Made by a program: the position numbers and the translations under genes | Shown here: positions 1-30,482 of the stretch, in pieces | Position numbering within the stretch: position 1 is the first letter of the stretch | Layout: each line of letters begins with the position of its first letter | Source: Bacteroidota bacterium | GTDB taxonomy: Bacteria > Bacteroidota > Bacteroidia > Chitinophagales > BACL12 | DNA: 64,000 nucleotides | Reading direction: 5' to 3' | Assembly (NCBI GenBank): GCA_016718035.1 | Contig: JADKEK010000001.1 | Location: forward strand, 541,276-605,275 | The notes under the pieces: generated by a model | Database searches by the model: none | What the model was told of the DNA's origin: nothing | What the model saw: only the letters and a program-made list of their open reading frames with translations

Positions 1-40
1 AGGCAATTAAAATCACGATGGTTAATTTAATATTTTTCAT
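1..40 (-). CDS. 5-prime end of a secreted or membrane protein gene running off the left edge (partial)
   Basis: The reverse complement of 1-40 reads ATG AAA AAT ATT AAA TTA ACC ATC GTG ATT TTA ATT GCC, giving MKNIKLTIVILIA. This looks like a signal peptide, but only 13 codons are visible. Confidence 0.3.
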   Translation of the reverse strand, partial: MKNIKLTIVILIA

Positions 41-210
41 AAAATTATTTCAGCTTTTGGTAAATAATGAATTTACCGGGCATAAAAATGCCCGGAATGC
101 ACCATACATCCGGGCTGTAAATAATTTTTATTCCAGCGGTTATGCAGTGCAGTTGGCCGTTTCGGCGTCTGGGTGGAAGTTTAGTTTTTGCATAGTATGT
201 TATTTAAATT

Positions 211-11815: not shown

Positions 11816-13414
11816 TCACACCAATGATGCAGTTTTAAACTCACTCGTAGTATGAAAAGTAATTTTAGGATGATTTTCAATAGCCACATTCAAAGCCCAA
11901 CCCGTCTCCGCCATATAAACCGGATTCTGGTCCTTATCAAAATAAATGTAATCTATTTTTAATCGTATAAATTCATCCAATTGTTTTTTATCTGTAGTAG
12001 TCATCCAACACGCCTTATTCATATGAATAGGTTGAAAACGACATTTCGCTCCATATTCATTTTCCAAACGATATTGAATTACCTCAAACTGCAATTCCCC
12101 GACAGCACCCACCACTTTTTTATATCCGTTGTTATGAATAAATAACTGCGCAACGCCTTCATCAGTCAACTGCTGAATACCCTTTTCTAATTGTTTCGTT
12201 TTCATAGGATCCATGTTAATCAACTCCTTAAATATTTCAGGAGAAAAACTTGGAATACCTCTAAACATCATATCTTCACCTTCAGTAAGTGTATCACCAA
12301 TTTTAAAATTTCCGGTATCGTATAAACCAATTACATCACCCGGAAATGCCTCTTCAATTACATCTTTACTCGACGCTAAAAAGGCATAAGGATTATTAAA
12401 TCGTAAATTTTTATCCAAACGAACATGATGATAAAAACTATTGCGTTCAAAATGCCCCGAACACACACGTAAAAATGCAATTCTGTCCCTGTGGCGAGGA
12501 TCGATGTTTGCGTGAATTTTAAAAATGAATCCGGTAAATTTATTTTCGTCGGCGTCTACAAAACGAACATCCGTTTCTCTTCCTTGAGGCACAGGGGAAA
12601 TCTGAATAAATGTCTCCAATAATTCCTGCACACCAAAATTATTTATCGCAGAACCAAAAAATACCGGTGCAATATCTGCATCTAAATACGGTTTGCGGTC
12701 AAATTCATGATATACACCTTCAATCAGCTCTACATCTTCACGCAATTGTTTCGCATCGCGTTCGCCAACCTGTTTATCTAATAAACCATCTTTTAAATCC
12801 TCTATAATTAACACATCATCTTCAACACGCTGTGAACCCGGGCGGAATAAATTGAGTTTTTTATGATACAACGAATACACACCTTTAAAATGTGTTCCCA
12901 TGTTGATCGGCCAACTCAAAGGGCGCACACGAATTTTAAGTTTTTCTTCTAATTCATCCAATAAATCAAATGGATCTTTTCCATCGCGGTCCATTTTGTT
13001 GATGAAAATGATAACCGGCGTTTTGCGCATGCGACAAACTTCCATCAATCGCATGGTTTGCTCTTCCACACCTTTCACGCAGTCGATTACCAGGATAACA
13101 CTATCCACAGCTGTTAAGGTGCGATAGGTATCTTCAGCAAAGTCCTTGTGACCGGGAGTATCCAATAAATTCACTTTAACACCCTCATATTCGAACGACA
13201 TAACGGAAGTAGCCACAGAGATACCACGCTGACGTTCAATTTCCATGAAGTCGCTGGTTGCGGACTTTTTAATTTTATTGCTTTTAACAGCTCCGGCAAC
13301 CTGAATGGCGCCTCCGTACAAGAGGAACTTTTCGGTAAGGGTGGTTTTACCGGCATCGGGGTGACTGATAATGGCAAATGTTCTCCGTATTTGTATCTCT
13401 GATTGTACGCTCAT
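11816..13414 (-). CDS. prfC: Peptide chain release factor 3
   Basis: 532 aa with GTPase motifs [24 protein letters not shown] and NKMDR. The full-length architecture is that of RF3. Confidence 0.95.
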
Positions 13415-13557
13415 CTCTTGTTAATTCGGGCGCAAAGATAGTGATTTCAGGAAGAAGGGAACCTGCCTGGTGGCAGACAGGCACAGAAGATCTGCATGGC
13501 GGCAGATTACGCTGATAACGCGGATTTACGCGGATGCTTTGTTTAAAATGGAATTAA

Positions 13558-13709
13558 CTTAGTGTTTCTTAGAGGCCCTTAGCAACTTTGTGGTGAAGGT
13601 TAGCTAATATTATTTATTTCCTGATGATGTTTTAGTTTCGTAAATGATAATTATGAGACTAACCCATGTTTGCCACTAAGGCTCAAATGACCTCAAAGTT
13701 GCGCGAAGG
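13558..13709. repeat. Inverted-arm intergenic element with phased CTTNG pentamers (copy A)
   Basis: Left arm has CTTNG at 13558, 13568, 13578 and 13586, then TGG. Right arm has CCA, then CNAAG at 13676, 13684 (degenerate), 13694 and 13704. An AT-rich core lies between the arms. Confidence 0.7.
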
Positions 13710-13932
13710 ATTTAAGATCAACCAACCCGCAATTTTTTGACTGTTCTTTATTAAAGATTGGAAGAAAAATGAAGCCAAAGGCCAAAGTAGGGGCGAATTG
13801 AATCCGCCCCGTAATTGGGCTTTGGCGATTGAGTTCACAATACTTAAGCTAATATTTTATAGCAACTAATTTGTGCATAAGCAGGTCAATCAAAACCCCT
13901 CATCCCTCATCCACATTTCCTACATTTGTAAC

Positions 13933-14385
13933 ATGACAAAACGAAAGGACTTTGCTTACGTTGCTATACAATTTTTTTTATTGGCCTGTTATTTTTTATT
14001 AATTAATCAAAGGGCAGGAGGTACTCCGTTCTGGATGCAAATTATTAGTGGAATTTTGGTTGTGCTAGGAACGGTATTGGTGATATTGCCAATTTTACAA
14101 TTAAATAAATTTATTAGTGTTTTTCCAACTCCGGTTAATGGGGCTTTATTGGTGACGAATGGTGCATTTAAATATATTCGTCATCCGATATATGCGGGTA
14201 TTATTTTAGGTGGTGCGGGGTTGGCATTGATGATGAATAATTTATTGCAATTGTTGGTGATTATTATTTTGTTTGTATTGTTTGAAGTGAAATCAGATTA
14301 TGAGGAGCAACAACTTGCTAAAGTGTTTAAGGATTATGAGGAGTATAAAAAACATACTTATAAATTCTTTCCTGGAATGAGGTAG
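13933..14385 (+). CDS. Isoprenylcysteine carboxyl methyltransferase (ICMT) family membrane protein
   Basis: Multi-pass membrane protein with RHPIYAG and a C-terminal SDYEEQQL..F..YEEYKK pattern. I chose the start at ATG 13933. Confidence 0.7.
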   Translation: MTKRKDFAYVAIQFFLLACYFLLINQRAGGTPFWMQIISGILVVLGTVLVILPILQLNKFISVFPTPVNGALLVTNGAFKYIRHPIYAGIILGGAGLALMMNNLLQLLVIIILFVLFEVKSDYEEQQLAKVFKDYEEYKKHTYKFFPGMR

Positions 14386-14395
14386 TGGGTTAGCC

Positions 14396-14428
14396 GGGAA
14401 GGCGGGAAGGAGGGAAGTTGCGGGGGGG
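14396..14428 (+). other. G-quadruplex-type tract on the sense strand downstream of the ICMT-family gene
   Basis: GGGaaggcGGGaaggaGGGaagttgcGGGGGGG begins 11 nt after the TAG stop at 14383-14385. Confidence 0.5.
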
Positions 14429-14510
14429 TGTTGCGAGAACTCAAGACAATATAATTTTCATTTCTACCCATCAAGTTATTTGCCTACAAAACTTAATAGC
14501 AATAATACAA

Positions 14511-14659
14511 CTTTGTGCTACTTTGAGGCCCTTCGCTTCTTGGTGGTGATAGCAAACTAATGCTATTAAAAACTTTTGTAAAACAATGACATAAATTTTA
14601 TTTTGTTGATAAGCCCATTTTACCGCTAAGTCTCTAAGGGCCTCTAAGCTACACTAAGA
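14511..14659. repeat. Inverted-arm intergenic element with phased CTTNG pentamers (copy B)
   Basis: Left arm has CTTNG at 14511, 14521, 14531 and 14539, then TGGTG. Right arm has CCG, then CTAAG at 14626, 14634, 14644 and 14654. Confidence 0.7.
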
Positions 14660-14795
14660 GATTAGTCCAATAGATCATCTTTTGATAGCATTTTTTTTCA
14701 TGTATCGATTAGTCCTAGTAAGTTGGTATTGCATACTTAGCCAACTCAAAACCACTCATCCCTCATCACTCATCCTTTTTCATTAATATTACATT

Positions 14796-15575
14796 ATGGA
14801 ACAACATCACAATCCTTTTGCGAGTAAAGCAGCACGTTTGTTATTGATATTAGGTGTGTTTTTTGTCACCAATGCCCTGTTGGCAGAATTAATTGGGGTG
14901 AAAATATTTGCACTTGAAGATAGTTTTGGATGGAAACCATTTAACTGGAATTTATTTGGTGAAAAAGGCTCACTCAATTTTACTGTCGGCGTTATTTTAT
15001 GGCCATTTGTTTTTATCATGACCGATATTATTAATGAATATTTTGGCCTGAAGGGTGTCCGTCGATTAAGTTATTTGGCCATTATTTTTATTATATATGC
15101 ATTCGGAATTATTTACCTAGCAATAGAACTTTCACCTGCCGGATTTTGGCCTGCATCTAATGTAGATAAAGGTGTTCCTGATATGCAAAATGCCTATGCT
15201 GTTATTTTCGGACAGGGTATGTGGATTATTGCCGGAAGTATTATTGCATTTTTACTCGGACAATTAATTGATGTATTTGTATTTCATAAAATAAAAGGAA
15301 TGACTGGTGAAGGAAAAATTTGGTTGCGTGCAACAGGCTCAACTGCAATATCACAAATAATCGATAGTGTTGTAGTATTATATATTGCTTTTGTCATCGG
15401 CCCACAACATTGGTCCGTCAATCAATGGCTGGCAATAGCAACCGTAAATTACGTCTACAAAATGACAGCAGCCGTAGCCCTCACACCCGCCCTCTATTGG
15501 GTCCACAACATCATCGACAAATTCCTGGGCAAAGAACTCAGCGAAAAAATGCGCGCCGAAGCCATGAAAAATTAA
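14796..15575 (+). CDS. yhhQ: Queuosine precursor transporter (VUT/YhhQ family)
   Basis: 259-aa multi-pass membrane protein with YhhQ-like blocks (ITDIINEYFG, VFVFHKIK, STAISQIIDS). Confidence 0.75.
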   Translation: MEQHHNPFASKAARLLLILGVFFVTNALLAELIGVKIFALEDSFGWKPFNWNLFGEKGSLNFTVGVILWPFVFIMTDIINEYFGLKGVRRLSYLAIIFIIYAFGIIYLAIELSPAGFWPASNVDKGVPDMQNAYAVIFGQGMWIIAGSIIAFLLGQLIDVFVFHKIKGMTGEGKIWLRATGSTAISQIIDSVVVLYIAFVIGPQHWSVNQWLAIATVNYVYKMTAAVALTPALYWVHNIIDKFLGKELSEKMRAEAMKN

Positions 15576-15635
15576 CTCAAAACCCTCCCGCCATTTTCCG
15601 CACCTCCGCGTGAACCCAAACAGCCAGCCCACAAT

Positions 15636-16017
15636 CCCGATAGCTATCGGGACTCAAAGGAACAGCCCACAAATAAACACAGAGGTATTTATCGAATAGT
15701 ATTTAATTTTATTTTTATTGAATAATCATAGTTATTAATTCAAATATACGAACTCATTCTCCGAGAACTCTGTGTGCATTCCCTCTGAGTTCTCCGTGGT
15801 TCCGGCTGTTTCCACCTCAGCGGACGCTCCGCGAATTATCGCATTTTTTTTACCACGGAGTCCACAAAGAAACAGCCCACAAAGAAAACACAGAGGTATT
15901 TATCGAATAGTATTTAATTTTATTTTTATTGAATAATCATAGTTATTAATTCAAATATACGAACTCATTCTCCGAGAACTCTGTGTGCATTCCCTCTGAG
16001 TCCCGATAGCTATCGGG
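15636..16017. repeat. Composite repeat: two 16-nt perfect palindromes bracketing two copies of an AACAGCC-ended, AT-rich-core element
   Basis: cccgatagctatcggg occurs at 15636-15651 and 16002-16017. Segments 15678-15790 and 15889-16001 look identical by eye (113 nt). Their arms carry CCA-CGGAG...CAGAGG and CTCNG...CTCCG-TGG words in inverted orientation. Confidence 0.75.
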
Positions 16018-16038
16018 ATCGTGGTTTCGGCTGTTTAA

Positions 16039-16169
16039 TCAGCACATTAACACATCAGCACATTAATTCCCGGCTGTTCCCACCTCGGCGGACGGTTCGC
16101 ATTGGTACATCGGTACATTTCCACATTGGTACATTAATCAGCACATCAGCACATTAACACATCAGCACA
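16039..16169 (-). repeat. Degenerate 8-bp-period array (ATGTGCTG / ATGTACCA words on the minus strand) abutting the dnaG stop
   Basis: Read on the minus strand from the dnaG stop: TAATGTGCTGATGTGTTAATGTGCTGATGTGCTGATTAATGTACCAATGTGGAAATGTACCGATGTACCAAT. The same module follows the stop at 42696. Confidence 0.8.
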
Positions 16170-18094
16170 TTAGCTTACAACAGGCAACACAGTAGTCCCA
16201 GTATCCTTCGCCAGTTTATTGATGATAGTTTGTAGTTGCATACTTTCTTTCATACACATTCTCACTTCATCTATTGATGCCTCATCAGTCAGTTTACCCA
16301 GTTCCTGAATACGCGCATCTACATCATGTTTCATTTTAATAATCTTTTTCAACTTCAACAACGAAATCGACTTCACAATATCCTTCCTCACCAAAAACTG
16401 TTTTTCCGTAATTGGCACATCATGCATTTTAATCCAGTTATCACTAATCTCGTATGGCGATTGTAATAAATCAATACACAACGATTTTATTTCTTCATCA
16501 TCGTGATTAATAAAAAATACCTGCGGTAAAAATTCATTATGTTCGTAATACGTTCTATATTCATCTACAACCTTACGATAAATACCATTTTCAAATTCCA
16601 CATCCGTTAAATTGCGTAAAATACGCGCAATCGCATTCTCCCCATCAATTTCAAAATTACTATTCTCCAATAACAAACGAATAATATCCCTTTCCTGTGC
16701 TTCATCCAAATGGAAAGTAAACGAAGGTTGTTCCTTCGCCACCGGCATTATTTCCGTATGTTCAACAGATGCTTTGTCGTTGGTAGAAAGTTTATCAAAA
16801 GCCCCTTTGCGCAGAATTTTATTTGTTTCAGATATTAATAATTGTTCTTCAACATTTAAATTGCGCGCCGTTTGTTTTAAGTAGAGACTACGCGTAATCC
16901 CATCAGGAATTTTGGCGATACTCTGCACAATATCTTTAATAATACCAGCAACTTTTACAGGGTCGCCTTTTGCATCTTCAAGATATAAATCCGTTTTTAA
17001 ATGGATGAGGTCTTTTTTATTATCCTCAATATATTTTCTAAAACCGTCAGCGCCTAATTTTTGCACATAAGTATCCGGGTCATCATCAGCAGGCAGCAGC
17101 ACCACTTTTACGTTCATGCCCTCTTCCAATGCAATTTCCAATCCGCGCAAAGCCGCTTTTACACCCGCACTATCACCATCATATAATATCGTTAAATTCG
17201 GTGTATATCGTTTAATCAAACGCACCTGATCCTGCGTCAGCGAAGTCCCGGACGATGCCACCACATTTTCAATGCCACTTTGCGACAACGAAATTACGTC
17301 CATATACCCCTCAACCAGATAACATTCTTCTAGTTGCGTAATAGCTTTCCGCGCCTGAAAAATCCCAAAAACAATTTTACTTTTTAAATAAATATCCGTC
17401 TCCGGCGAGTTAATATATTTCGGAATTTTTTTGTCCGCACTCAAGGTTCTGCCACCAAAACCCAACACCTTACCCGTGATGCTATGAATAGGAAACATCA
17501 CCCTGCCACGGAAAAAATCTTTGCCATATTGTGAGGTGAGCCCCAATTGTTGCAATAATTCAACTTTATAGCCCGTGTTGGAAGCAATGCGTGTAAACGT
17601 CTCCCCATCGCCGGGACAAAATCCCAATTTAAATTTTTCGATAGTATCGCTGCGCAGTCCCCGTTCGGTGAAATAACTCAAGCCGATACTTTTGCCTTCC
17701 TCATCGTTATGCAAATAATCGTAGAAATAGTTCTACGCAAAAGTGTTGATGATATAAAGGCTCTCCCTGCGATTTTCCTCCTGAATTTCCTCGTTTGTGC
17801 GTTGCTTTTCCTCAACCTCGATATGATATTTATTCGCCAGGTAAATCAGCGCCTCGCGGTAACTCAGTTGCTCATGCTCCATCACAAACCCCACCGAATT
17901 CCCACTTTTTCCGCACCCAAAACACTTATAAATCCCTTTGGGCACCGAAACCGTAAACGAAGGCGTCTTCTCATTATGGAAAGGACATTTCCCAATCAGG
18001 TTCACCCCCGGCGCTTCAAATTCACAAAATCCCCCACCACCTCCTCAATCCTGGAAGCATCCATAATCCGCCCAATCGTTTCCTTCGATATCAC
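16170..18094 (-). pseudogene. dnaG: DNA primase DnaG, interrupted by one in-frame TAG and one homopolymer frameshift
   Basis: Zinc finger CPFHNEKTPSFTVS..YKCFGCGKSGN, and TOPRIM motifs EGYMDV and DGDSAG. ORFs 17733-18005 and 16170-17714 are in the same frame, separated by TAG at 17733-17735. The first 30 codons (GTG at 18094, MISKETIGRIMDASRIEEVVGDFVNLKRRG) are out of frame across the C5 run at 18005-18009. Confidence 0.85.
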
Positions 18095-18623
18095 CCCCCA
18101 AAGTTAACAGATTTACCCCATTGCACCACGCCGCCCCACAAAATGAACTTTCGTAACTTAGGATGTGAAATGTTTTGGAGCAGAAACATCGCGCTCCGTC
18201 CAAACAATCCGCACCGGTCTTTCATTGCAAGTCCTCTCCGCTAAGGCGGATGCGGGCTTTCCATTGCAGCCCGGGCTATGTTGGCGGTTTGGTGTAATCC
18301 TTGATATTTGTTTTTCGTATAGTTGGGGTTTTGTTGTGACAGGGTAAAGCGGGTGATAAGTGAAGGTTTGTGGTTTGGGGGTATTGTGAAATATGTGTTG
18401 GTTTTTATGGATTTTGATAAAATGTGACTTGAGAGTGGTTAACGGAAAACCGTGAATTTAAGAAGCTAGCATTGTGAAAAAGTAGATTTTACTTACATTT
18501 ATGAAATCAATTATGATGAATAAATTTTTCTATTTATGCCCAGATAAGGCGGTATTGGAGAGCCTTGCGCAATTGAGTTTCACAAATTAACTTTAGTGTG
18601 AACTGTAATAAACGACATTAAAA

Positions 18624-19457
18624 ATGATAGAAGATATATTTTTTCAAGACGAGGGACAAGTTAAAATTACTGCCGCATCAGTTGGTATAAGTAGACTTCG
18701 TTGGACTTCTGTAAAGGAAAGTGAAATTGATTCCAATAAGCATTTGGAGTTAATGGAGAAATATAGATTTGACCATTTACCAATTGAACCAGAAATTGGG
18801 ATTATTGCGGAGTTCTTCAAAACTGCGGAACCTAACAAATTCGACAAAATTGAAAGACTTAAAATAAATTACAAAGACGTAATTCCTTTAGATACAAATA
18901 TTCGAGATGTTATAGACAAATTTGCAAATCAAAAAAAGACATTCTTTTTCTTACGTTATCAGAAAAATATTTCAGGGCTTATAACATTGGGAAACTTAAA
19001 TTGTAAACAAGTTCAGATATATGTTTTCGGTTTAATCTGTGATTTAGAGAGGGAATTGGGTGACTTTTTAAACTCTCAGCTAACAAACAAAGAAATTAAC
19101 GAATGGATAAAAGGCAAAATTGACGCAAGCAATCCAGTCGACAAATACAAACTCATACTTGAAAATTATGAGAGCCTAACTAATTCTGACCTGGAAAATA
19201 GTCTAACAGAACATTTTTTTCTTGTTGACTTTTTTAAAATAATCGCCGATAAAAATCTTTACAGTGAGCTTGGTTATACCAAATCTGGGTGGGAAGACTT
19301 GAGTAGTATAAACGAACTAAGAAAGAGAATCGCGCACCCAACAAGAAGTTTAATTGACAACGAAAACAATATTTTTAAACTGCAAAAACGAATAATCAAA
19401 ATAGAAGACTTGACATTTCGCTTTACTATGCGAAAACAGAACAGCATTCGCCAATAG
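18624..19457 (+). CDS. Hypothetical protein: CBS-pair-like N-terminal half fused to a HEPN-like (RX4H) C-terminal half
   Basis: 277 aa. There are two CBS-like segments (...MEKYRFDHLPIEPEIGIIAEFF... and ...VIPLDTNIRDVIDKFANQKKTFFFLRYQKNISGLITLGNL...). An INELRKRIAHPTRS motif (R-x4-H) lies near the C-terminus. Confidence 0.5.
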   Translation: MIEDIFFQDEGQVKITAASVGISRLRWTSVKESEIDSNKHLELMEKYRFDHLPIEPEIGIIAEFFKTAEPNKFDKIERLKINYKDVIPLDTNIRDVIDKFANQKKTFFFLRYQKNISGLITLGNLNCKQVQIYVFGLICDLERELGDFLNSQLTNKEINEWIKGKIDASNPVDKYKLILENYESLTNSDLENSLTEHFFLVDFFKIIADKNLYSELGYTKSGWEDLSSINELRKRIAHPTRSLIDNENNIFKLQKRIIKIEDLTFRFTMRKQNSIRQ

Positions 19458-19605
19458 CATTGTGTCTAAATTAGCGGTGTCGCGCAAAATTGGGCCTAAG
19501 AGCCTCAATCAAGCTTTTATGCAATTTGGCAGTAAAGTGCTTCGAAATAACCAACCGCAGTAACACCCATCACCTTAGTCAGTATTAATATTAAACAATT
19601 TAATT

Positions 19606-20733
19606 ATGGAAGAAAAAGAAACAAACATTGAAAATATACCCGAAGAAAATAATGATTCGTATGTAAATGACGACTTGTATAACATCAGTTCTTGGGGTGC
19701 AGACTATTCATTCAGGGAATTGGTTTCATTGTATGATGATAATGATCTAATAAAACCAGAACTCCAAAGAAAATATGTCTGGGAAAAGCCTGAAGCTAGT
19801 CGTTTTATCGATTCCATCTTACTTGGATTGCCTATACCAAGTATTTTTTTGGCCAAAACAGAAGACAATAAAATGTTAATTATAGATGGGTATCAGAGAC
19901 TTATGACTGTCAATGATTACATAAAAGGAATTTGGTCGGGTGACAATAGTGTTTTTACATTATCAAACACACCAGGTAAAATTAACCATCGGTGGAAAGG
20001 AAAAGCATATAGCCAACTTTCTGAATCCGAACAACGAAAAATAAAAACTACCACTATTCACGCTATTATATTTGAACAAAAACAGCCTAAGGAAGATGAT
20101 ACAAGTTTGTATCAAATATTTGAAAGAATAAACACAAGTGGTAAAACTTTAATGCCGCAAGAAATACGTAACTGTGTCTACCAAGGTGATTTGAATACCT
20201 TACTCTTCGAATTGAACAAAGATGTTAATTGGCGATTACTATTTGGGAATCCCAAAGAGGATCCTAGAATGCGGGATTTAGAATTTATTCTTAGAATTTT
20301 TGCATTAAAAAGTAAAGAAATAGAAAGCTCAATAAAGGGAAGTGTCTCGTTAAAAAAGGTTTTAAATGAGTTTATGGGTTCAAAAGAGAATAATAAAGTT
20401 GAAACTATCAACAAGTTTCGAAAAGTATTTGTAAATTCGATATCAACCATTAGAAATTTATTTGGAGAAAACGCATTCTTCAATGTACAATCAAATGATT
20501 TGACTACAATTAGAAAAAGATTTTATCCTACTGTATACGATTCTGTCTTTATTTCAACCTCAATTGCTTTAGAAAGAGGAGTTGACATCACAAAAGTAAC
20601 AGAAGCAAATCGACTTGCCTTATTGAGAGATGAAAAATTTAGAGAATATTCTACTCAAGGTACTATGCAAGTAGAGCATATAAATGGTCGAATTAATTTA
20701 GCATTGCAATACCTTTATAATTTGAAAAGATGA
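19606..20733 (+). CDS. DUF262 (ParB/GmrSD N-terminal-like) domain protein
   Basis: Hallmark DUF262 blocks ELQRKYVWEKPEASRFIDSILLGLPIPSIFL and IIDGYQRL. No DUF1524/His-Me finger motif is seen in the C-terminal half. Its stop overlaps the next start in an ATGA. Confidence 0.8.
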   Translation: MEEKETNIENIPEENNDSYVNDDLYNISSWGADYSFRELVSLYDDNDLIKPELQRKYVWEKPEASRFIDSILLGLPIPSIFLAKTEDNKMLIIDGYQRLMTVNDYIKGIWSGDNSVFTLSNTPGKINHRWKGKAYSQLSESEQRKIKTTTIHAIIFEQKQPKEDDTSLYQIFERINTSGKTLMPQEIRNCVYQGDLNTLLFELNKDVNWRLLFGNPKEDPRMRDLEFILRIFALKSKEIESSIKGSVSLKKVLNEFMGSKENNKVETINKFRKVFVNSISTIRNLFGENAFFNVQSNDLTTIRKRFYPTVYDSVFISTSIALERGVDITKVTEANRLALLRDEKFREYSTQGTMQVEHINGRINLALQYLYNLKR

Positions 20734-21155
20734 ACAATCAAACAGCTCTTCAAAGCCTCAATGATTGTTCAATAGAATTAGATAAGCTTCAGAAAATAAT
20801 TGAAGTATTTGGGCAGTCACATTCCATTGTTCCATTCCTTTCTAACTATGCAGTTATTAAATGTTGTGGAACAATCGAAAATTGTTTTAAGATAATTATT
20901 TCAGACTTTCATAATTCATTGCCGCCCCAGGCGAAAAACTACATTGAAAACACTTTTCTTTATAGTTCAATGAATCCCAGCAAGGAAAATATTTGTAAAA
21001 GTCTTAAAAAATTTGATAAACAATGGAATATTAATTTTAAAGCAAAATTGGCATCTGAAATTGATACCAATCGAATTGAATCGTCTTTGAGTTCTCTCAA
21101 CGAAGCAAGAAATACCTTTGCTCATGGAAGTAATCCAGGAGTTAGTTTTTGCTAG
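20730..21155 (+). CDS. HEPN-like putative RNase (RNxxAH motif), C-terminus displaced by a frameshift
   Basis: NEARNTFAHGS carries the R-N-x-x-A-H motif. The gene is translationally coupled to the DUF262 gene. The ORF stops at 21155, just after a T5 run (21146-21150). With T4 the reading would continue as ...VSFASVVTYFNDSRRVIEILDEVVI to a TAA at 21217-21219. Confidence 0.6.
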   Translation: MNNQTALQSLNDCSIELDKLQKIIEVFGQSHSIVPFLSNYAVIKCCGTIENCFKIIISDFHNSLPPQAKNYIENTFLYSSMNPSKENICKSLKKFDKQWNINFKAKLASEIDTNRIESSLSSLNEARNTFAHGSNPGVSFC

Positions 21156-21731
21156 TGTAGTCACTTATTTCAATGACTCAAGAAGAGTTATTGAAATTTT
21201 AGACGAAGTTGTTATCTAATTAATACGCTTAACAGGGCACTATTACGATCTTGCATTATATTAAACTTTATAACTGGAGCTTTATTTTGAATTATTTCTA
21301 ATAACAGATTTGATTCTCAAAATCGCAAACAGCAAATTGCTGTAAAACGATATAAGAATTATTTGCCAACAAGCAAAGTAAAGGCTACCTCTAATAAAAT
21401 TTAGATTCATCTATTTTATATATGCAAATAGGCAAACGAATTGCTCAAGGACAGGTCATGTAAAATAAATTTCTATTTAACATCATGACTTTAATTAATT
21501 TTAATTAATTTATGATTTTTAATACTGAGAAGTTAGTATAGGTCATGCGAATTATTTGTTGGAGTAAAGAAGAATTTATTGACATAGACTCTGCCTTTTT
21601 TTCTAGTAAGTATATATTTGCAAAAATTAACAATGATTTTCGTATTTTAGGAGAGATTTGTCACCGATTTTTTTAATATTGGACGATTATTTCATTTTTA
21701 AACAATCACAAGGTGCAGTATATTTGAACCC

Positions 21732-24700
21732 ATGAACCAAGGAATCTATGAAGAACTAGTAACGCAATTGGTCTCAAATAAAATTAATGAGCTCAATAGG
21801 GATTCATATTACATAAATAAATCTAAGATTGATAAAGAGGAAGCTTCAATTATTATCTCGCGCCATTTAGCAAAAACTATCAAAGGGGCGCTTGATGCTA
21901 TGAAAAATGAAACCAATCTGATAGAACTCCAAATTGAAATTGCAAACAAAATCATACAATTTTTAAAGTCTGAATTGAAGTCAAATGATTTTGATAGGGA
22001 TTTGATTGAAAGTGGGGGTGAAATATTAAAAGCTGTGTTTACTAAAATTGATGCTCATTTTTCTGACTTCGACCTCCATTTAAAAGAAATAACACCCTAT
22101 ACCAGACTTACCTACAGTGAATTATTCACAGGCGGGAGTAATACCGGTTTATCCCTTGAAAGTGAACTTAAAAAAGAAATACTTTCTTCCAACAAAATTG
22201 ACTTACTCGTATCATTTATCAAGTTTAAAGGCATCATCATTTTAGAGCGGGAACTTAAGGAGTTTACTCAAAGGGGAGGCCAATTGCGGGTTATCACTAC
22301 TACCTACATGGGAGCTTCTGACTATAAAGCAATTGAATTGCTGTCAAAGTTGGAAAATACACAAGTAAAAATATCCTATAACACTGGAAACGAAAGGCTT
22401 CACGCAAAAGCGTATTTGTTTTATAGGAATACTGGTTTTCATACCGGGTATATTGGCTCTTCCAATTTTTCAAGGTCTGCTCTAACAGATGGTTTGGAGT
22501 GGAATGTGAAAATTACTACTAAGGAAGTAGGCCACATTATTGATAAATTCCAAAAAACTTTTGAGTCATACTGGCAAAGTGATGATTTTGAAATTTTCGA
22601 TAGTGCTATTCACAAGGAAAAACTTACCGAATCATTAAACAAAGGCAAAAACAATACGAATGGAGTTGTAAATCCTGTCGCATATTTTGATTTAAAACCT
22701 TATCCTTTTCAATATGAAATCCTTGAAAAACTCGAGGTTGAAAGAACGATCCATTATCGATATAGAAACCTTGTAGTTGCAGCTACGGGTACTGGTAAAA
22801 CAATAATTTCAGCTTTTGATTACAAGAATTTTAGGAATGAAAACAAATCTGCGAAATTACTTTTTTTAGCACATCGGAAAGAAATTTTGGAGCAGGCACT
22901 TTCAACATTTCAAGGAATATTAAAAGACAATAACTTCGGAGAATTATGGGTAGATGGAAAAACTCCAACAAATTATGAATATGTGTTCGCCTCAATCCAA
23001 ACTCTTAAGAATAGGCTTGATGATTTAGAACTTTCTAAAGATTTTTTTGATTATATAATTATTGATGAGTGCCACCACCTCACCGCCTCTTCTTATAGAG
23101 GAATAATAAATTACTTCACGCCTAAAATTTTACTCGGCCTTACTGCAACACCTGAAAGAATGGATGGTGGTGACATAAAAGAGGATTTTCACAATAGAAT
23201 TGCAGCCGAAATTAGATTGCCTGAAGCTTTAAACAGAAAATTATTGTGCCCTTTTCAATATTTTGGAATTACGGATAGTGTTGATCTAACAAAAGTGCGT
23301 TGGGAAAAAGGCCGGTATGTAGCTAGTGAGTTAAGTAATATTTATACCGCTAATGATAGGCGCGTTCGTGAAATAATTGATGCGCTTGATAAATATACCA
23401 AAGACTATAACAATGTAAGAGCACTCGGATTTTGTGTAACTATTGAGCACGCAAAGTTTATGGCGGAAAAATTCTTATTAGCTGGTTTCAAGGCTGGTTA
23501 TTTAACGAGCGCTAATTCCAATAATAGGTCAGAAATCAGAAATCAGCTGCTTAAAAAAGAAATCAATTATTTATTTGTTGTAGACATTTTTAATGAAGGC
23601 GTTGATATACCAGAAATTGACACGGTTTTATTTTTACGGCCAACAGATAGTTTAACCGTTTTTCTGCAGCAACTCGGAAGAGGCTTGAGGTTAGCTGATG
23701 ACAAGGAATGTTTGACTGTACTTGATTTTGTTGGTAATGCCAGGCCAGAATACAATTTTGAAAATAAATTTCGAGCATTAATTGGAAAAACATCTACACC
23801 AGTAAAAAAGGAGGTTGAAGACAATTTTCCACATCTGCCTTTGGGATGTTCAATAATTTTAGAAAGGAAGGCTAAAGAATTTATTTTAAGCAATATCGCT
23901 GCTGCAACTGCCCTAAATCAGAATCAGCTTATTCTTAAAGTAAAAACATTTCAACACCAAACAACACTTCCGTTAAATCTGAAGAATTTCACCGAATTTT
24001 TTGATATACCACTTCAATTGATTTATAAACAAAGCAGAAAATTTGGATGGAAAAGGCTTTGTCAAATGGCAGGTATTATTGATGATTTTGGAAGTGAAAA
24101 TGAAAGTCAGATATTATCTGCAATGACTAACAAATGGTTGTCGACAGCATCCAGCAGCTATTTTAACTTTATTTTAAAACTTGCTAAAAAAGGTTTTAAA
24201 ATTAAAATCGCTGATTTGACGAAGATTGAAAAAACAATGGCATTAATGCTCCATTTTGATGTAAGGCAGAGTGCAGGCGGGTTTAAGTCACTAGAAGATT
24301 CTATAAATCACATAGGGAAAAATAAAATACTTGTTGAAGAGATTGTAGAATTAATGGAGATTTTAATTGACAAAATTGATTTCAAAGAAATTGAAATTGA
24401 TTTGCCTTATAACCAACCATTAAAATTGCATGCACGTTACACTAGAGCCCAAATACTAGCAGCATTTGGTTTGAGTAGTTTTGAGAAAAAATCCTCGAAT
24501 AGGGAAGGGGTTGCAAAAAATGACGAACTTAACACGGAACTATTATTTATAAATTTAATTAAATCGGAAGAAGACTTTTCGCCAACAACTATGTATGATG
24601 ACTACGCGATAAATGAACGTTTATTTCACTGGCAAAGTCAAAATTCAGTTGGACCCAATACGCCAAAAGGCTTATCCTATATAACGCATAAGGAGAATCA

Positions 24701-24890
24701 AAAAAAAATATTACTTTTTGTCCGGGAAAAATCAAATGACGAGTTTGGAAACGCAATGGGCTATGTGTTTGTAGGTGAAGGCACTTTAAATCATTATTAT
24801 GACTCCAAACCAATGAGTGTTGAGTGGGAATTGAAGGAGCCATTGCCACATTTTCTTTGGAAGGATGCAGCGAAGTTGAGAGTGGGTTGA
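21732..24890 (+). CDS. PLD (HKD) nuclease-SF2 DEAD/DEAH helicase-DUF3427 fusion protein
   Basis: 1052 aa. HKD motif HAKAYLF..GYIGSSNFS. Helicase motifs VVAATGTGKT (I), IIIDECHH (II), GLTATPER (III) and FLQQLGRGLR (VI). The C-terminal ~300 aa end ...EWELKEPLPHFLWKDAAKL, as I recall for DUF3427. Confidence 0.85.
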   Translation: MNQGIYEELVTQLVSNKINELNRDSYYINKSKIDKEEASIIISRHLAKTIKGALDAMKNETNLIELQIEIANKIIQFLKSELKSNDFDRDLIESGGEILKAVFTKIDAHFSDFDLHLKEITPYTRLTYSELFTGGSNTGLSLESELKKEILSSNKIDLLVSFIKFKGIIILERELKEFTQRGGQLRVITTTYMGASDYKAIELLSKLENTQVKISYNTGNERLHAKAYLFYRNTGFHTGYIGSSNFSRSALTDGLEWNVKITTKEVGHIIDKFQKTFESYWQSDDFEIFDSAIHKEKLTESLNKGKNNTNGVVNPVAYFDLKPYPFQYEILEKLEVERTIHYRYRNLVVAATGTGKTIISAFDYKNFRNENKSAKLLFLAHRKEILEQALSTFQGILKDNNFGELWVDGKTPTNYEYVFASIQTLKNRLDDLELSKDFFDYIIIDECHHLTASSYRGIINYFTPKILLGLTATPERMDGGDIKEDFHNRIAAEIRLPEALNRKLLCPFQYFGITDSVDLTKVRWEKGRYVASELSNIYTANDRRVREIIDALDKYTKDYNNVRALGFCVTIEHAKFMAEKFLLAGFKAGYLTSANSNNRSEIRNQLLKKEINYLFVVDIFNEGVDIPEIDTVLFLRPTDSLTVFLQQLGRGLRLADDKECLTVLDFVGNARPEYNFENKFRALIGKTSTPVKKEVEDNFPHLPLGCSIILERKAKEFILSNIAAATALNQNQLILKVKTFQHQTTLPLNLKNFTEFFDIPLQLIYKQSRKFGWKRLCQMAGIIDDFGSENESQILSAMTNKWLSTASSSYFNFILKLAKKGFKIKIADLTKIEKTMALMLHFDVRQSAGGFKSLEDSINHIGKNKILVEEIVELMEILIDKIDFKEIEIDLPYNQPLKLHARYTRAQILAAFGLSSFEKKSSNREGVAKNDELNTELLFINLIKSEEDFSPTTMYDDYAINERLFHWQSQNSVGPNTPKGLSYITHKENQKKILLFVREKSNDEFGNAMGYVFVGEGTLNHYYDSKPMSVEWELKEPLPHFLWKDAAKLRVG

Positions 24891-25297
24891 TATTTCAATC
24901 TAGGTATTTGGAAATTGACAACACAAGTAATTTTTATTTAATTGGCGCTAAATACAATAAGAAAATTGGCTTTTATTCCAGTAAATTACCTCCAAATATT
25001 TTTAACCGTGTCGTATCAGAGCTCAATTGCATTCAACTTGATAGTTTAAATCAATATTATGAAGCCAGTTGGACCGACGACCAAACCTGTGGTGTTTTAA
25101 TACAAACAACAGATACTATTTATAAAAGTAGTGCCTATGGCTTTGATGAAGAACCTGTGGAATTGAGAATCCTTTTTCATACGCTCATGGAATTGTATAA
25201 AGATGTGGAATTGAAAGAGGATTCATTAATTGAAGATAAATTTTTATTCCAGAATTTCCCTTACGAAAATATTCCCCCTCCACCAAATCGCAAATAA
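24887..25297 (+). CDS. Hypothetical protein, probably a 5-prime-truncated remnant (DUF6438-like by recollection)
   Basis: The ORF has no ATG start. An in-frame TTG at 24887 overlaps the helicase stop (TTGA), and a GTG at 24824 is the alternative. There is no signal peptide or Cys-rich N-terminal part. It has a YYEASWTDDQTCGVLIQT core. Confidence 0.35.
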   Translation: MIFQSRYLEIDNTSNFYLIGAKYNKKIGFYSSKLPPNIFNRVVSELNCIQLDSLNQYYEASWTDDQTCGVLIQTTDTIYKSSAYGFDEEPVELRILFHTLMELYKDVELKEDSLIEDKFLFQNFPYENIPPPPNRK

Positions 25298-25532
25298 TCA
25301 GGTTATTTCGTATATTTTGCAACTACCATATTAAAATCTGGATTGGCACCCGTAATACCGGACTCTGTAATTTTGATGGTAAAACATTTACCAATTTTAA
25401 GGAATTAGAATAAAGGTTTATTTCCTAGAAACCATTTCAGGCTTTCAGCGGTTGAAAATTACTTGGTTTAGATATCCTGCAACTGCTGTGGATTGGTTTA
25501 CCTAGTGGAAAACAATCAAATATTACTTATCT

Positions 25533-25829
25533 TTGGAATATGAATTATCTGGCCCAAATAAAAATGAACTGGAAAAAATGAAACCAGAGCTATCGGAAAA
25601 GTTTTTCGTAAGCGAAATTGGGTTATTCGGGTCAATCACCCGTGATGATTTTACTCCAAATAGTGACGTAGATATAATTGTTGATTTCAATAAGCCTATC
25701 GGTATTGAATTTATTGATTTAGCTGATTTTATAGAAAGTAGGCTACACAGAAGGATTGATTTAATATCTAAAAAAGCATTAAGAAAATATTTTTATTTGA
25801 GTATAGATAAGGAAATACAATATGTCTAA
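25533..25829 (+). CDS. Nucleotidyltransferase (MNT/MntA-type antitoxin)
   Basis: IGLFGSITRDDFTPNSDVDIIVDF is the minimal nucleotidyltransferase signature (GS..D.D). It is about 98 aa. Confidence 0.75.
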   Translation: MEYELSGPNKNELEKMKPELSEKFFVSEIGLFGSITRDDFTPNSDVDIIVDFNKPIGIEFIDLADFIESRLHRRIDLISKKALRKYFYLSIDKEIQYV

Positions 25830-25879
25830 ACGATAAGATACTGTATTACTTAAATGCATTATTAAAAGACGTACTCTAA
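25822..25879 (+). pseudogene. Remnant of the cognate HEPN (DUF86/HepT-like) toxin gene
   Basis: An ATG at 25822 overlaps the MNT stop by 8 nt, as in intact MNT-HEPN pairs. It reads MSKR then stop. One frame over it continues KILYYLNALLKDVL then stop. The RX4H-bearing body is absent. Confidence 0.4.
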
Positions 25880-26037
25880 CCTATTAATTATACATCAACT
25901 AAATTTTAGGCTTCAAAAGTGAAATATTTATTCTAAAATAGCCAATTCCCGCATCACTTAAAATTACCATCATTCATTCTTAATAAAAATTGTATTGCCT
26001 AATTATAAATTAGCAATTGTATCTAATTGTAGGGACG

Positions 26038-26780
26038 AATTGCATGCGTCCTTACGATTAGATATAATTGCGCCAGCCTCTCGAAAAATTAAAACACTCA
26101 TCCCTCATTTTTTATCATCAGCAACCTTAGCGTAACTTCGAGCCCCTTAGAGCCTTCGTGGCTAACAAGGAAAATGTTTTGTTAGTTTTAAATTCAAAAG
26201 GTTTACCACAAAGTAGCAAAGCGCCTCTAAGATTCGCTAAGGGTATTAAATGAATTGCATGCGTCCTAACAATTAGATACAATTGCGCCAGCCTCTCGAA
26301 AAATTAAACACTCATCCCTCATTTTTTATCATTAGCAACCTTAGCGTAACTTCGAGCCCCTTAGAGCCTTCGTGGCTACCAAGGAAAATGTATTGTTAGT
26401 TATATATTAAAAAGGTTTACCACAAAGTAGCAAAGCGCCTCTAAGATTCGCTAAGGGTATTAAATAAATTGCATGCGTCCTAACGATTAGATACAATTGC
26501 GCCAGCCTCTCGAAAAATTAAACACTCATCCCTCATTTTTTATCATTAGCAACCTTAGCGTAACTTCGAGCCCCTTAGAGCCTTCGTGGCTAACAAGGAA
26601 AATGTATTGTTAGGTTTAAATTAAAAGGTTTACCACAAAGTAGCAAAGCGCCTCTAAGATTCGCTAAGGGTATTAAATAAATTGCATGCGTCCTAACGAT
26701 TAGATACAATTGCGCCAGCCTCTCGAAAAATTAAATCCTCATCCAACATCACTCATCACTCATCCCTCATTTCTCATCTT
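26038..26780. repeat. Tandem repeat, about 3.5 copies of a ~214-bp unit
   Basis: Units start at 26038, 26253, 26467 and 26680 (aattgcatgcgtcc...). Each full unit holds a CTCATCCCTCAT word plus a CTTNG/CNAAG inverted-arm pair (26126-26161 and 26206-26241 in copy 1). Differences between copies cluster in the loop between the arms. Confidence 0.9.
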
Positions 26781-26821
26781 TGGCACGATAATGGAATTTA
26801 CCTATTAAAAAAGGAGGGTTT

Positions 26822-27574
26822 ATGAAAAATGCTTTACTTAAAACAATGTTAGTGGTGTTCATCCAAATGCAGCATGTATTGGCTTTTCCTCCCGCTAATC
26901 CGAACGTGGATCCTTATTATGGTAATTCTACTTTCGAAATTAAATCGCAAGGCGCCAATTATATTACCGTTGCAATTGATGGCGATTTTTTTAATGAACC
27001 GGTGAAAAAATTTGCTGTAAATAATATGGCTCCCGGTAATCATTATGTGGAAGTGTTTACGGATAAAGTACACCACAGTGGTTATTATGCAACCACACAA
27101 AGGGTGAAATTATATGCCGGTTATGTTTACATTAAACCTGCGAGTTTAGTGCATGGCGTTATCGATAATTTCGGTAGGTTTTATATAAAATCGGTGCAGG
27201 CTTTACAAATGTATGAACCTGTTTATTATCAGCCTGTCTATCCTGATTATCCACCTTATCAGCAACAACAGCAACCTGTATGTAATGCACAGCAACAAAT
27301 GAATACAACTTCGTTTAATGCCTTATTACAAACTATCCATAATCAATGGTTTGATGATACTAAACTCAATGTCGCCAGACAAGCGGTGCAATCCGGTTGG
27401 TTTACTTCTGAACAAATTGCTACTATGATGCGCGAATTTAGTTTTGAAGATAGTAAACTGGAATTAGCCAAAACTGCTTATAGCCACGTAGTAGATAAAC
27501 AAAATTATTTTGTGGTTTACGATGAGTTTTGGTTTAGCAGCAGCGTTGATGAATTAATTCGGTTTATCCATTAA
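26822..27574 (+). CDS. DUF4476-like secreted protein
   Basis: Signal peptide plus C-terminal block FDDTKLNVARQAVQSGWFTSEQIATMMREFSFEDSKLELAK, typical of DUF4476 as I recall it. Confidence 0.6.
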   Translation: MKNALLKTMLVVFIQMQHVLAFPPANPNVDPYYGNSTFEIKSQGANYITVAIDGDFFNEPVKKFAVNNMAPGNHYVEVFTDKVHHSGYYATTQRVKLYAGYVYIKPASLVHGVIDNFGRFYIKSVQALQMYEPVYYQPVYPDYPPYQQQQQPVCNAQQQMNTTSFNALLQTIHNQWFDDTKLNVARQAVQSGWFTSEQIATMMREFSFEDSKLELAKTAYSHVVDKQNYFVVYDEFWFSSSVDELIRFIH

Positions 27575-27602
27575 AAAATATTAATTCCAAGTATGATCAA
27601 GA

Positions 27603-27630
27603 GTCCACTCGAAAGGGTGGGCTTTTTTTT
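27603..27630 (+). terminator. Rho-independent terminator
   Basis: Stem gtccac pairs with gtgggc (one G-U pair) around an 8-nt loop. A T8 run follows. Confidence 0.65.
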
Positions 27631-27657
27631 GTTCCTGCGAATTATTACTTTTAAGGG

Positions 27658-29910: not shown

Positions 29911-29954
29911 TGTGTGTTGGTTGAGGTGGGTTTTATTCATAATAATTCCTATTT

Positions 29955-30482
29955 TTGGCCGTTATCCATAAAATTGAGTTTGTGAACATACGATTATTAT
30001 TTACTGCCGCGATAGTATTGACTTCAACCTTTGTGTATTGTGAAAACACTATATCCGGGGGAACTGAGCCTACAGGATTACAACAAGTAGAGCAGGTGAG
30101 TCCTTCTGCGGAAGTGTTTTATGCAGAAACGCAGTTGTTACCTGAGGCAGGAAATACTATTGTTTTACCGGATACAAAAGAGGAAAAAGATTCTACGGAA
30201 ATCCCACCAAAATTAGAACCGATGGTATTGGGTGGGGCTGGAGCTGTTTTGTTGGGAACGGGTGCTGCGGTGGCTGGTGTGTTTACAGCGCCGGTTTTGT
30301 TGTTGGCGGCTTTGGTATTATTTGGAGCCGGTGCATTTTTGACTGCCAAGGGATGGAAAAAAATAAAAGAAAATCCGAAATTATTTAAAGGAGAAAAATT
30401 AGCCGTTGCCAATTATTTAGTGATTGGTGTAGTAGGGGTTGTTGCTTCGTTTTATATTTTATACTTCTTGTTTACGATTTAA
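29955..30482 (+). CDS. Hypothetical membrane protein
   Basis: 175-aa ORF with an N-terminal hydrophobic segment ending in Cys. It has a Gly/Ala-rich transmembrane segment and a C-terminal transmembrane segment. I recognise no family. Confidence 0.5.
   Translation: MAVIHKIEFVNIRLLFTAAIVLTSTFVYCENTISGGTEPTGLQQVEQVSPSAEVFYAETQLLPEAGNTIVLPDTKEEKDSTEIPPKLEPMVLGGAGAVLLGTGAAVAGVFTAPVLLLAALVLFGAGAFLTAKGWKKIKENPKLFKGEKLAVANYLVIGVVGVVASFYILYFLFTI

Follow-up and report, generated by a model that had tools for sequence, protein, structure and literature searches.

The closest described system is DS-11, a one-protein anti-phage system that combines CBS and HEPN domains and was found with DefensePredictor (Science 2026, PMC13092281). 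The E. coli protein (WP_000257686.1, 365 amino acids) carries its CBS region at residues 134-241 and an HEPN_Swt1 domain at residues 252-359, is defensive in E. coli, and loses phage defense in the CBS-pocket mutant Y157A and in HEPN catalytic mutants; R330A is among the mutant strains listed (PMC13092281). Its authors conclude that the nuclease is controlled through its CBS region, to which some adenine derivative not yet identified would bind, and their model places ATP against Y157, this being a prediction rather than a binding measurement (PMC13092281). DS-11 is the only defense protein with a CBS sensor validated so far (PMC13092281). Anantharaman et al. (2013) had described HEPN-CBS fusions, some of them with an HD domain, and proposed that nucleotide ligands regulate RNA stability through them (PMC3710099). 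Here we describe a gene for a related protein in a 64,000-nucleotide stretch of DNA from a Bacteroidota bacterium (assembly GCA_016718035.1, contig JADKEK010000001.1), the whole of which we call the window. The gene, at positions 18624..19457, appears from profile comparison to encode a distant DS-11 homolog that has the same core and lies outside NF053863, the NCBIfam model for DS-11, and its product probably works on its own against phage, as a one-protein effector like DS-11.

The original prediction for this gene, made from its letters alone, was that a CBS-pair-like sensor is fused to an HEPN domain, and this reading is supported: both halves hold, and the family is a profile-level homolog of DS-11. 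Its further statement that it knew of no characterized example is out of date, DS-11 having been validated in 2025-26 (PMC13092281) and CBS-HEPN fusions having been noted in 2013 (PMC3710099). Literature phrase searches for CBS-HEPN fusions returned the DS-11 paper only, in its two versions. The parts of the gene to which the following analysis refers are these:

18624..19457, plus strand: the CBS-HEPN gene, with an ATG start, 277 amino acids and a stop codon (from the list of open reading frames).
18660..19028, plus strand: CBS pair (Bateman module), residues ~13-135, by VIA-align, Foldseek, and Pfam in relatives.
18753..18785, plus strand: CBS1 motif M44-x4-F49-D50-x-L52-P53-I54, by conservation and hhalign pairing.
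18975..19001, plus strand: CBS2 motif G118-L-I-T121-L-G-N124-L-N126, by conservation.
19005..19454, plus strand: HEPN-like helical domain, residues ~128-277, directly after CBS2, with E142 in its first helix.
19320..19337, plus strand: RX4H motif R233-K-R-I-A-H238, the predicted HEPN catalytic pair, by sequence, conservation and hhalign.

The open reading frame was found with all three of the motif strings that had been quoted for it: DHLPIEPEIGIIAEFF makes up residues 50-65 of the translation, NISGLITLGNL residues 115-125, and INELRKRIAHPTRS residues 229-242, within which R233 and H238 are four residues apart. The ATG start was judged sound because homologs share an N-terminus that begins with MIED (alignment A1, below). 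A profile search of the organism's own 4.59-Mb genome gave one match, indicating a single copy of the gene. An AlphaFold2 (AF2) model of the full protein, built on A1, reached a pLDDT of 90.3 and a pTM of 0.84. A scan for sigma-70 promoters and terminators found 20 where 16.2 were expected, which is not above the level in shuffled sequences. An upstream non-coding RNA antitoxin, as in AbiF-like systems, was considered and rejected: positions 18000-19700 hold no tandem repeats, positions 15500-27000 hold no Rfam family, and in several homologous loci the upstream gene ends 8 bp before the CBS-HEPN start.

A word-seeded homolog search gave 951 candidates and 144 proteins at E<=1e-3, nearly all of them 265-295 amino acids long and unnamed, with Chryseobacterium, Saprospiraceae, Labilibaculum, Mangrovimonas, Pareuzebyella and Ignavibacteria among the source names. 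Three alignments were made: A1 holds the window protein and 49 of 120 listed homologs (50 sequences), A2 joins window residues 125-277 to 21 locus-derived relatives, and A3 holds 101 diverse sequences of the short CBS-HEPN family. When 1.84 billion cluster representatives were searched by HMMER with the A1 profile, 823 matched at E<=1e-3; tightening the threshold to 1e-10 left 309, and to 1e-30 left 123. Conservation was counted in the best 150 of the 823, which are representatives of 50%-identity clusters. The profile covered 103 of these best 150 nearly end to end; 98 of the 103 are 253-299 amino acids long and the other five 372-417. Residues N230, R233, A237, H238, P239, E142, D50 and P53 are invariant in the 50 A1 sequences, as are G118, L119, I120, T121, N124, L125 and N126. 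In the best 150 representatives, R233 and H238 are each found in 127 of 128 sequences and E142 in 142 of 142. The N-terminal half is conserved at M44 (133/137), D50 (135/138), P53 (137/138), G118 (140/144) and N126 (133/144); position 49 is aromatic in 132 of 138 (F in 112, Y in 20), position 121 is Thr or Ser in 137 of 144, and position 124 is Asn in 105, Asp in 25 and His in 12 of 143.

Searches of other collections added distant leads. Look-alike clusters in the ESM Atlas carry the labels Bacteroidota, Chloroflexota and Thermoplasmatota, which we treat as leads only. Tblastn against plasmids gave three weak matches at 24-25% identity, with weak relatives on two haloarchaeal plasmids and one on a Hymenobacter plasmid, the last in a gene annotated DUF3293. 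The sole PHROGs match was phrog_5712, a family of unknown function (E 0.0034). When the PDB was searched with the single sequence, HepS (9oij, E 0.18) and an APC subunit (E 0.34) came up without significance, and the family profile found nothing there at E<=10. Some relatives are longer: a C-terminal DUF3293 domain follows the CBS-HEPN core in 8 of the 10 longer relatives scanned (372-477 amino acids; P0155, P0183, P0205, P0214, P0216, P0223, P0232 and P0260), with E-values of 1e-16 to 1e-21. A literature search found no mention of DUF3293, and a PDB search with a DUF3293-bearing member found no relative.

By its predicted structure the N-terminal half is a Bateman module, in line with the proposal of a CBS-pair-like sensor in the first ~135 residues. 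VIA-align placed residues 14-132 of the model on the CBS pair of MtCorB (7msu_A) with a Z of 12.3 and a root-mean-square deviation of 2.6 Å over 110 residues; in the whole comparison with 48,161 chains, 64 had a Z of at least 8, almost all of them CBS pairs among the matches listed. Foldseek against the PDB gave 18 matches at E<=1e-3, headed by 7msu at 1.6e-4, and all of those listed were CBS pairs. Pfam CBS (PF00571) was found in 25 of 50 relatives at E<=1 (best 4.2e-5) and not in the window protein. Two segments had been proposed to follow the CBS pattern; the second does so (G118-L-I-T121-L-G-N124), while the first (G59-I-I-A-E-F-F) is off the pattern, although the fold around it is still that of a CBS motif in the AF2 model. 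Within the family, the motif G-h-h-T/S-x-x-D/N is present in CBS2, with Asn or Asp at position 124 in 130 of 143 representatives, and is missing from CBS1. We take the segment G118..N126 to be a CBS motif of the ribose-binding type. A prediction for two copies of the protein with two ATP (on A1) scored 0.02 against a mark of 0.42, and has no bearing on dimerization or ATP binding.

The C-terminal half, which had been described as helical, was modeled alone (residues 125-277, on A2) as an all-helical domain with a pLDDT of 91.0. It was assigned to HEPN because of three kinds of evidence taken together: the invariant RX4H motif and E142, the Swt1-like profile matches in relatives, and structural neighbors enriched in HEPN proteins. 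Pfam HEPN_Swt1 was matched by 14 of the 50 relatives (best 7.9e-6) and HEPN_Apea by 10 of the 50, with neither found at E<=1 in the window protein itself; for one relative in the database, a PF18731 assignment was already precomputed. The top VIA-align rows are mostly HEPN, at Z values of 8.9-6.4 that lie within the range which the arrangement of a helical bundle can give by itself (the method advises caution below ~13). These rows are led by Roquin (4txa, Z 8.9), AbiA (8oz7, 8.4) and the HEPN protein 2hsb (8.4), followed by PbAbiF (8vz6, 8.3, with 139 residues aligned), the HEPN toxin 7ae2 (8.2), the HEPN domains of Csm6 (6tug, 7.4; 8jbc, 7.3), and Swt1 (4pqz, 6.9); the HEPN domain of sacsin is also among the neighbors. 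Five rows are HEPN by title (2hsb, 7ae2, 3o10, 8xdj and 4nqf), and we take the Roquin, AbiA, AbiF, Csm6 and Swt1 structures to be those of HEPN-domain proteins as well. The R-x4-H spacing that had been pointed out in this half corresponds to R233 and H238, and its near-complete conservation, together with that of E142, is what selection on an active site would leave. These data support the HEPN reading.

Comparison with DS-11 was made by way of NF053863 (the NCBIfam model "CBS domain-containing anti-phage protein", cut-off 260 bits) and four genomic DS-11 members rather than the E. coli protein itself. The four, which form alignment A4, are Bacteroidota proteins over the NF053863 cut-off (L025-L028, 325-343 amino acids). 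Alignment of A3 with A4 by hhalign gave a probability of 97.6% and an E-value of 3.8e-12 over 194 columns, with window residues 24-239 set against residues 95-298 of L025; CBS1 and CBS2, the opening helix of HEPN and the RX4H motif all lie inside this span. M44 is paired with Met, F49 with Tyr, L52-P53 with Leu-Pro, and E142 with Glu, and R233 and H238 fall upon the R and H of the motif RNDVMH in the DS-11 members. In the CBS1 segment (window 24-54, L025 95-125), the Tyr paired with F49 lies in the motif YSQLPV; the same motif surrounds Y157 of the E. coli protein, the two being equated by eye. In genome G094, the A3 profile also picked up the DS-11 gene (E 8.8e-11; positions 28-259 of 272), and a short-family member in genome G035 matched NF053863 over positions 91-292 of 305, through both domains.

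The distribution of the gene is sparse. Within the genus, none of the genomes of 16 other species (11 of them at least 90% complete) carries it; in the phylum it occurs in 7 of the 401 genomes sampled, its own included. In genome G275, two matches to the family profile lie 26 kb apart (C12:344626-344973 and 370670-371293). In genome G340 the match (C6:19408-19779) is to the HEPN half only (positions 129-249) within an 887-amino-acid open frame, which suggests that the HEPN module may occur in other architectures too. To survey the genomic context, 23 loci elsewhere were examined for two genes on each side, giving 84 neighbors, with open reading frames called by a greedy caller. The settings were as follows:

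L009, L010, L012, L018 (related Flavobacteriaceae): between a type III methylase and a Res helicase.
L006: between BREX PglX and PglZ.
L001, L008, L014, L015: adjoining type I hsd genes.
L013: adjoining an NACHT protein.
L017: adjoining a PLD protein and a helicase.
L003, L021, L022, L023, L007: adjoining large helicases, HNH/MazG or a transposase.
L004, L005, L011, L016, L019, L020: housekeeping-type neighbors only (6 of 23).

In the four Flavobacteriaceae loci the gene, at 6001-6855, begins 8-11 bp after the type III-like N6_N4 methylase gene and ends ~10 bp or less before Res, touching it in L018; in L006, a Saprospiraceae metagenome-assembled genome, the CBS-HEPN gene (5998-6843) overlaps pglZ by 4 bases. 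The CBS-HEPN gene behaves as a passenger inside other defense operons. Such a context fits an accessory defense gene that is mobile and self-contained, without proving it.

In the window itself the gene lies where a low-GC block begins on the left:

18500..26500, no strand: low-GC island holding the gene and separate named defense systems (GC 0.29-0.35, against 0.37-0.45 in the flanks).

No tRNA gene was found in 12000-30000, and neither an integrase nor a tRNA gene at the island edge. Downstream of the CBS-HEPN gene is a PD-T4-2/NsnA-like pair (19606-21155, plus strand), in which a 375-amino-acid DUF262/GmrSD_N protein (NsnA 8.2e-62, PD-T4-2_A 7.4e-49) is followed, with an overlap of 4 bases, by a 141-amino-acid RiboL-PSP-HEPN protein (Pfam 1.5e-13, PD-T4-2_B 2.5e-6); the match to the latter stops at profile position 167 of 191, so that its C-terminus may be short. 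A 576-bp interval (21156-21731) with a GC content of ~0.29 and no open reading frame of at least 50 amino acids precedes a 1052-amino-acid PLD, superfamily 2 (SF2) helicase and DUF3427 protein (21732-24890, plus strand), which PADLOC names as a type IV methyl-directed restriction enzyme (7.2e-232). A 157-amino-acid DUF6438 protein (24824-25297, 1.1e-14) lies at the right end of the island, and ~1.5 kb without an open reading frame of at least 120 amino acids follows it (25300-26800). On the other side of the CBS-HEPN gene, dnaG (16170-18120, minus strand) looks broken, with an in-frame TAG near 17730 (...INTFA / NYFYDY...) and a frame change near 18010 between an N-terminal piece ending in FVNLKRRG and the zinc-finger piece. 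A search of the genome gave one dnaG match with one TAG inside and no second copy, and the broken state of this only copy could be real, could come from recoding, or could be an error of sequencing.

The stretch of 2.8 kb that includes the gene recurs in metagenomes from activated sludge, wastewater and sediment. After four rows that might be the source were left out, 13 metagenome rows from 7 studies hold 0.61-0.88 of its words. Four metatranscriptome contigs, from three runs in two studies, match the stretch without a difference: three fall within the gene (18636-18879, 19086-19263 and 19151-19337), and the fourth takes in the gene's 3' end and the spacer after it (19454-19609). This gives a weak hint that the CBS-HEPN gene is transcribed, carry-over of DNA into RNA libraries being possible. 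No RNA contig over 19716-21200 was found in four runs, a result that is uninformative on the expression of the genes there.

We infer ligand binding and the identity of the ligand, dimerization, RNase activity together with its target, and the defense role of the short family, in the following form. In its anatomy the protein joins an N-terminal CBS pair straight to a Swt1-like HEPN domain, and the last helix of CBS2 continues into the first helix of HEPN. The CBS pair would bind an adenine-containing nucleotide or a derivative of one, in a pocket that would involve F49 and G118-x2-T121-x2-N124. Occupancy of this pocket, or a change in occupancy on infection, would alter the pairing of two HEPN domains, and the altered pairing would switch on a composite RX4H site made up of R233 and H238 with E142. 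The active enzyme would then cut RNA, most likely tRNA or mRNA, and so stop translation and phage growth, probably at the cell's cost. That the window protein would need its pocket aromatic and its HEPN catalytic residues is borrowed, by analogy, from the DS-11 paper.

Several results weigh against placing the window protein with DS-11 as an anti-phage effector. At E<=1, no model in Pfam, PADLOC or NCBIfam, NF053863 included, recognizes the window protein, and BLASTP of the window protein with a true DS-11 member was not significant (E 7.9). NF053863 does match 49 of the 101 A3 sequences (best E 6.6e-12), all far under the 260-bit cut-off, and sub-threshold matches to it were found in 382 of 401 Bacteroidota genomes and in 13 of 14 control genomes by way of ordinary CBS domains; because such matches are unspecific, the 49 of 101 prove little alone. 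In the organism's own genome the only match to NF053863 is an ordinary CBS frame on another contig. The A3 profile at E<=1e-5 reached only one of four sampled DS-11 genes, and a renewed homolog search with A3 gave close relatives only, no named DS-11 among them. As to the domains, the canonical motif is missing from CBS1, and where CBS sites typically have a ribose-binding Asp, the window protein and 105 of 143 representatives have Asn. The HEPN neighbors found by VIA-align have the middling Z values given above, and Foldseek with the C-terminal domain alone found nothing at E<=0.001 (best E 1.8). Tblastn of phage records found no relative of the CBS-HEPN protein, and two close peptide patterns matched 23 stretches in IMG/VR, none of them a relative. 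Finally, there are the six loci with housekeeping-type neighbors only.

Those six loci, with their metabolic or housekeeping neighbors, would suit a housekeeping or stress regulator, a CBS-gated RNase that tunes RNA stability to the energy or nucleotide state of the cell and has no phage role, and the nucleotide-responsive regulation of RNA stability that Anantharaman et al. (2013) proposed is of this kind, as their paper describes it (PMC3710099). We think such a role improbable in view of the sparse and patchy spread of the gene (0/16 in the genus, 7/401 in the phylum), its place in a low-GC island, its repeated embedding in type III restriction-modification, BREX and type I restriction-modification operons, and its homology to the validated defense protein DS-11. 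The gene might also encode a defense HEPN nuclease in which the CBS pair serves for dimerization or as a scaffold, the trigger being a phage protein or nucleic acid. In favor of this are the lack of a canonical CBS1 motif, the replacement of the ribose-binding Asp, and the fact that Pfam CBS is matched by only 25 of 50 relatives, and weakly; HepS offers a precedent as a single HEPN protein that is activated by a phage structural protein (PMC13043305). Against it, F49, D50, G118, T/S121 and N/D124 are the most conserved positions of the N-terminal half, and the DS-11 Tyr aligned to F49 is needed for defense and has ATP placed against it by prediction (PMC13092281). We consider the scaffold function improbable as well.

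The neighborhood in the window raises a different question, whether the gene is one component of a multi-gene system with the DUF262 protein, the small HEPN protein and the PLD-helicase-DUF3427 protein. All four genes are on the same strand within one low-GC block, and the DUF262 gene lies 148 bp from the CBS-HEPN gene. We give this very little credence: none of the 84 neighbors at the 23 loci is GmrSD_N/DUF262 or DUF3427, L017 alone has PLD and helicase and is without DUF3427, the closest homolog with context (L002, 80% identical) has other neighbors, and the neighbors in the window match known self-sufficient systems (NsnA/PD-T4-2 and type IV restriction). Non-catalytic HEPN domains exist, as in sacsin and some MNT-associated forms, and the domain could be catalytically dead, binding RNA or a nucleotide without cleaving it. 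Given that R233 and H238 each occur in all but one of 128 representatives, and E142 in all 142, this is highly unlikely.

A further possibility, which we hold to be rather unlikely, is that the short family split off long ago as a lineage of its own (there are leads in Bacteroidota, Chloroflexota and Archaea) and senses another ligand than DS-11, and that DUF3293, a recurrent C-terminal fusion, may make or degrade that ligand. A different ligand is suggested by the altered pocket, which has Asn for the ribose-binding Asp and a CBS1 that departs from the canonical form. It could be a nucleotide induced by phage or produced by a neighboring system rather than a common adenylate, and the fusion to DUF3293 may hint at the ligand pathway of CBS-HEPN proteins.

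The short CBS-HEPN family is a much larger sister family of DS-11 that is missed by Pfam, PADLOC v2 and NCBIfam, and a family model based on A3 would label hundreds of "hypothetical proteins." Its minimal sensor-effector core, without the N-terminal domain, is suited to structural and ligand work; the natural variation of the pocket at position 124 (Asn, Asp or His) is an asset in the same respect, and the DUF3293 fusion partner may point to the ligand.

The comparison with known systems places the protein as follows. In Csm6, a small-molecule ligand, the cyclic oligoadenylate made by Cas10, switches on the HEPN RNase. Csm6/Csx1 of type III CRISPR systems (CARF-HEPN) and the window protein would thus be alike in principle, each joining a nucleotide sensor to an HEPN RNase, whereas the sensor of Csm6/Csx1 is CARF rather than CBS, and the window gene has no cyclase or CRISPR genes nearby. 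PD-T4-2 is similar in having an HEPN RNase-type effector in a defense island, and UniRef calls some relatives of the window protein "RiboL-PSP-HEPN domain-containing protein"; it differs in being a two-gene system of DUF262 and HEPN, and the window protein matches neither PADLOC model at E<=1. Pfam RiboL-PSP-HEPN was not among the 25 families most matched by the 50 scanned relatives. HepS, from the Gifsy-1 prophage (9oij), is, as the window protein probably is, a single-gene HEPN defense (PMC13043305). In the PDB no sequence comes closer to the HEPN half (residues 144-248), although the E of 0.18 is not significant. Activated HepS cleaves tRNA anticodon loops and is triggered by phage tail-tip proteins (PMC13043305), which suggests tRNA as a plausible target class for the CBS-HEPN protein, by analogy. 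The lack of a CBS pair, the activation by tail-tip proteins and the tetrameric form, as that paper gives them (PMC13043305), set HepS apart.

The fusions of Anantharaman et al. (2013), alr3009 and the Pelobacter propionicus protein gi 118580987, are alike in uniting HEPN with a nucleotide-sensing CBS, and were predicted to link the sensing of a ligand to the cutting of RNA (PMC3710099); in that paper's description, from which the likeness is drawn, some have an additional HD domain and they are framed as signaling rather than defense proteins. DS-11 is closer. The window protein and DS-11 are each a single polypeptide encoded by a stand-alone gene, with a CBS pair followed by a Swt1-like HEPN domain, and they have in common an aromatic pocket residue (F49 against Tyr), the Glu of the first HEPN helix and the RX4H motif. 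The window protein lacks the N-terminal region of ~95-130 residues found in DS-11 proteins, so that its CBS pair begins at about residue 13, compared with ~95-110 in the four Bacteroidota DS-11 members and 134 in E. coli DS-11. Its CBS pair is more degenerate, Pfam CBS passing in all four of the true DS-11 members and not in the window protein, and its HEPN domain is longer (~150 residues against ~108). The short CBS-HEPN family is thus not a new category of system; its core is already known from DS-11, and what is new is the shorter form in which that core occurs.

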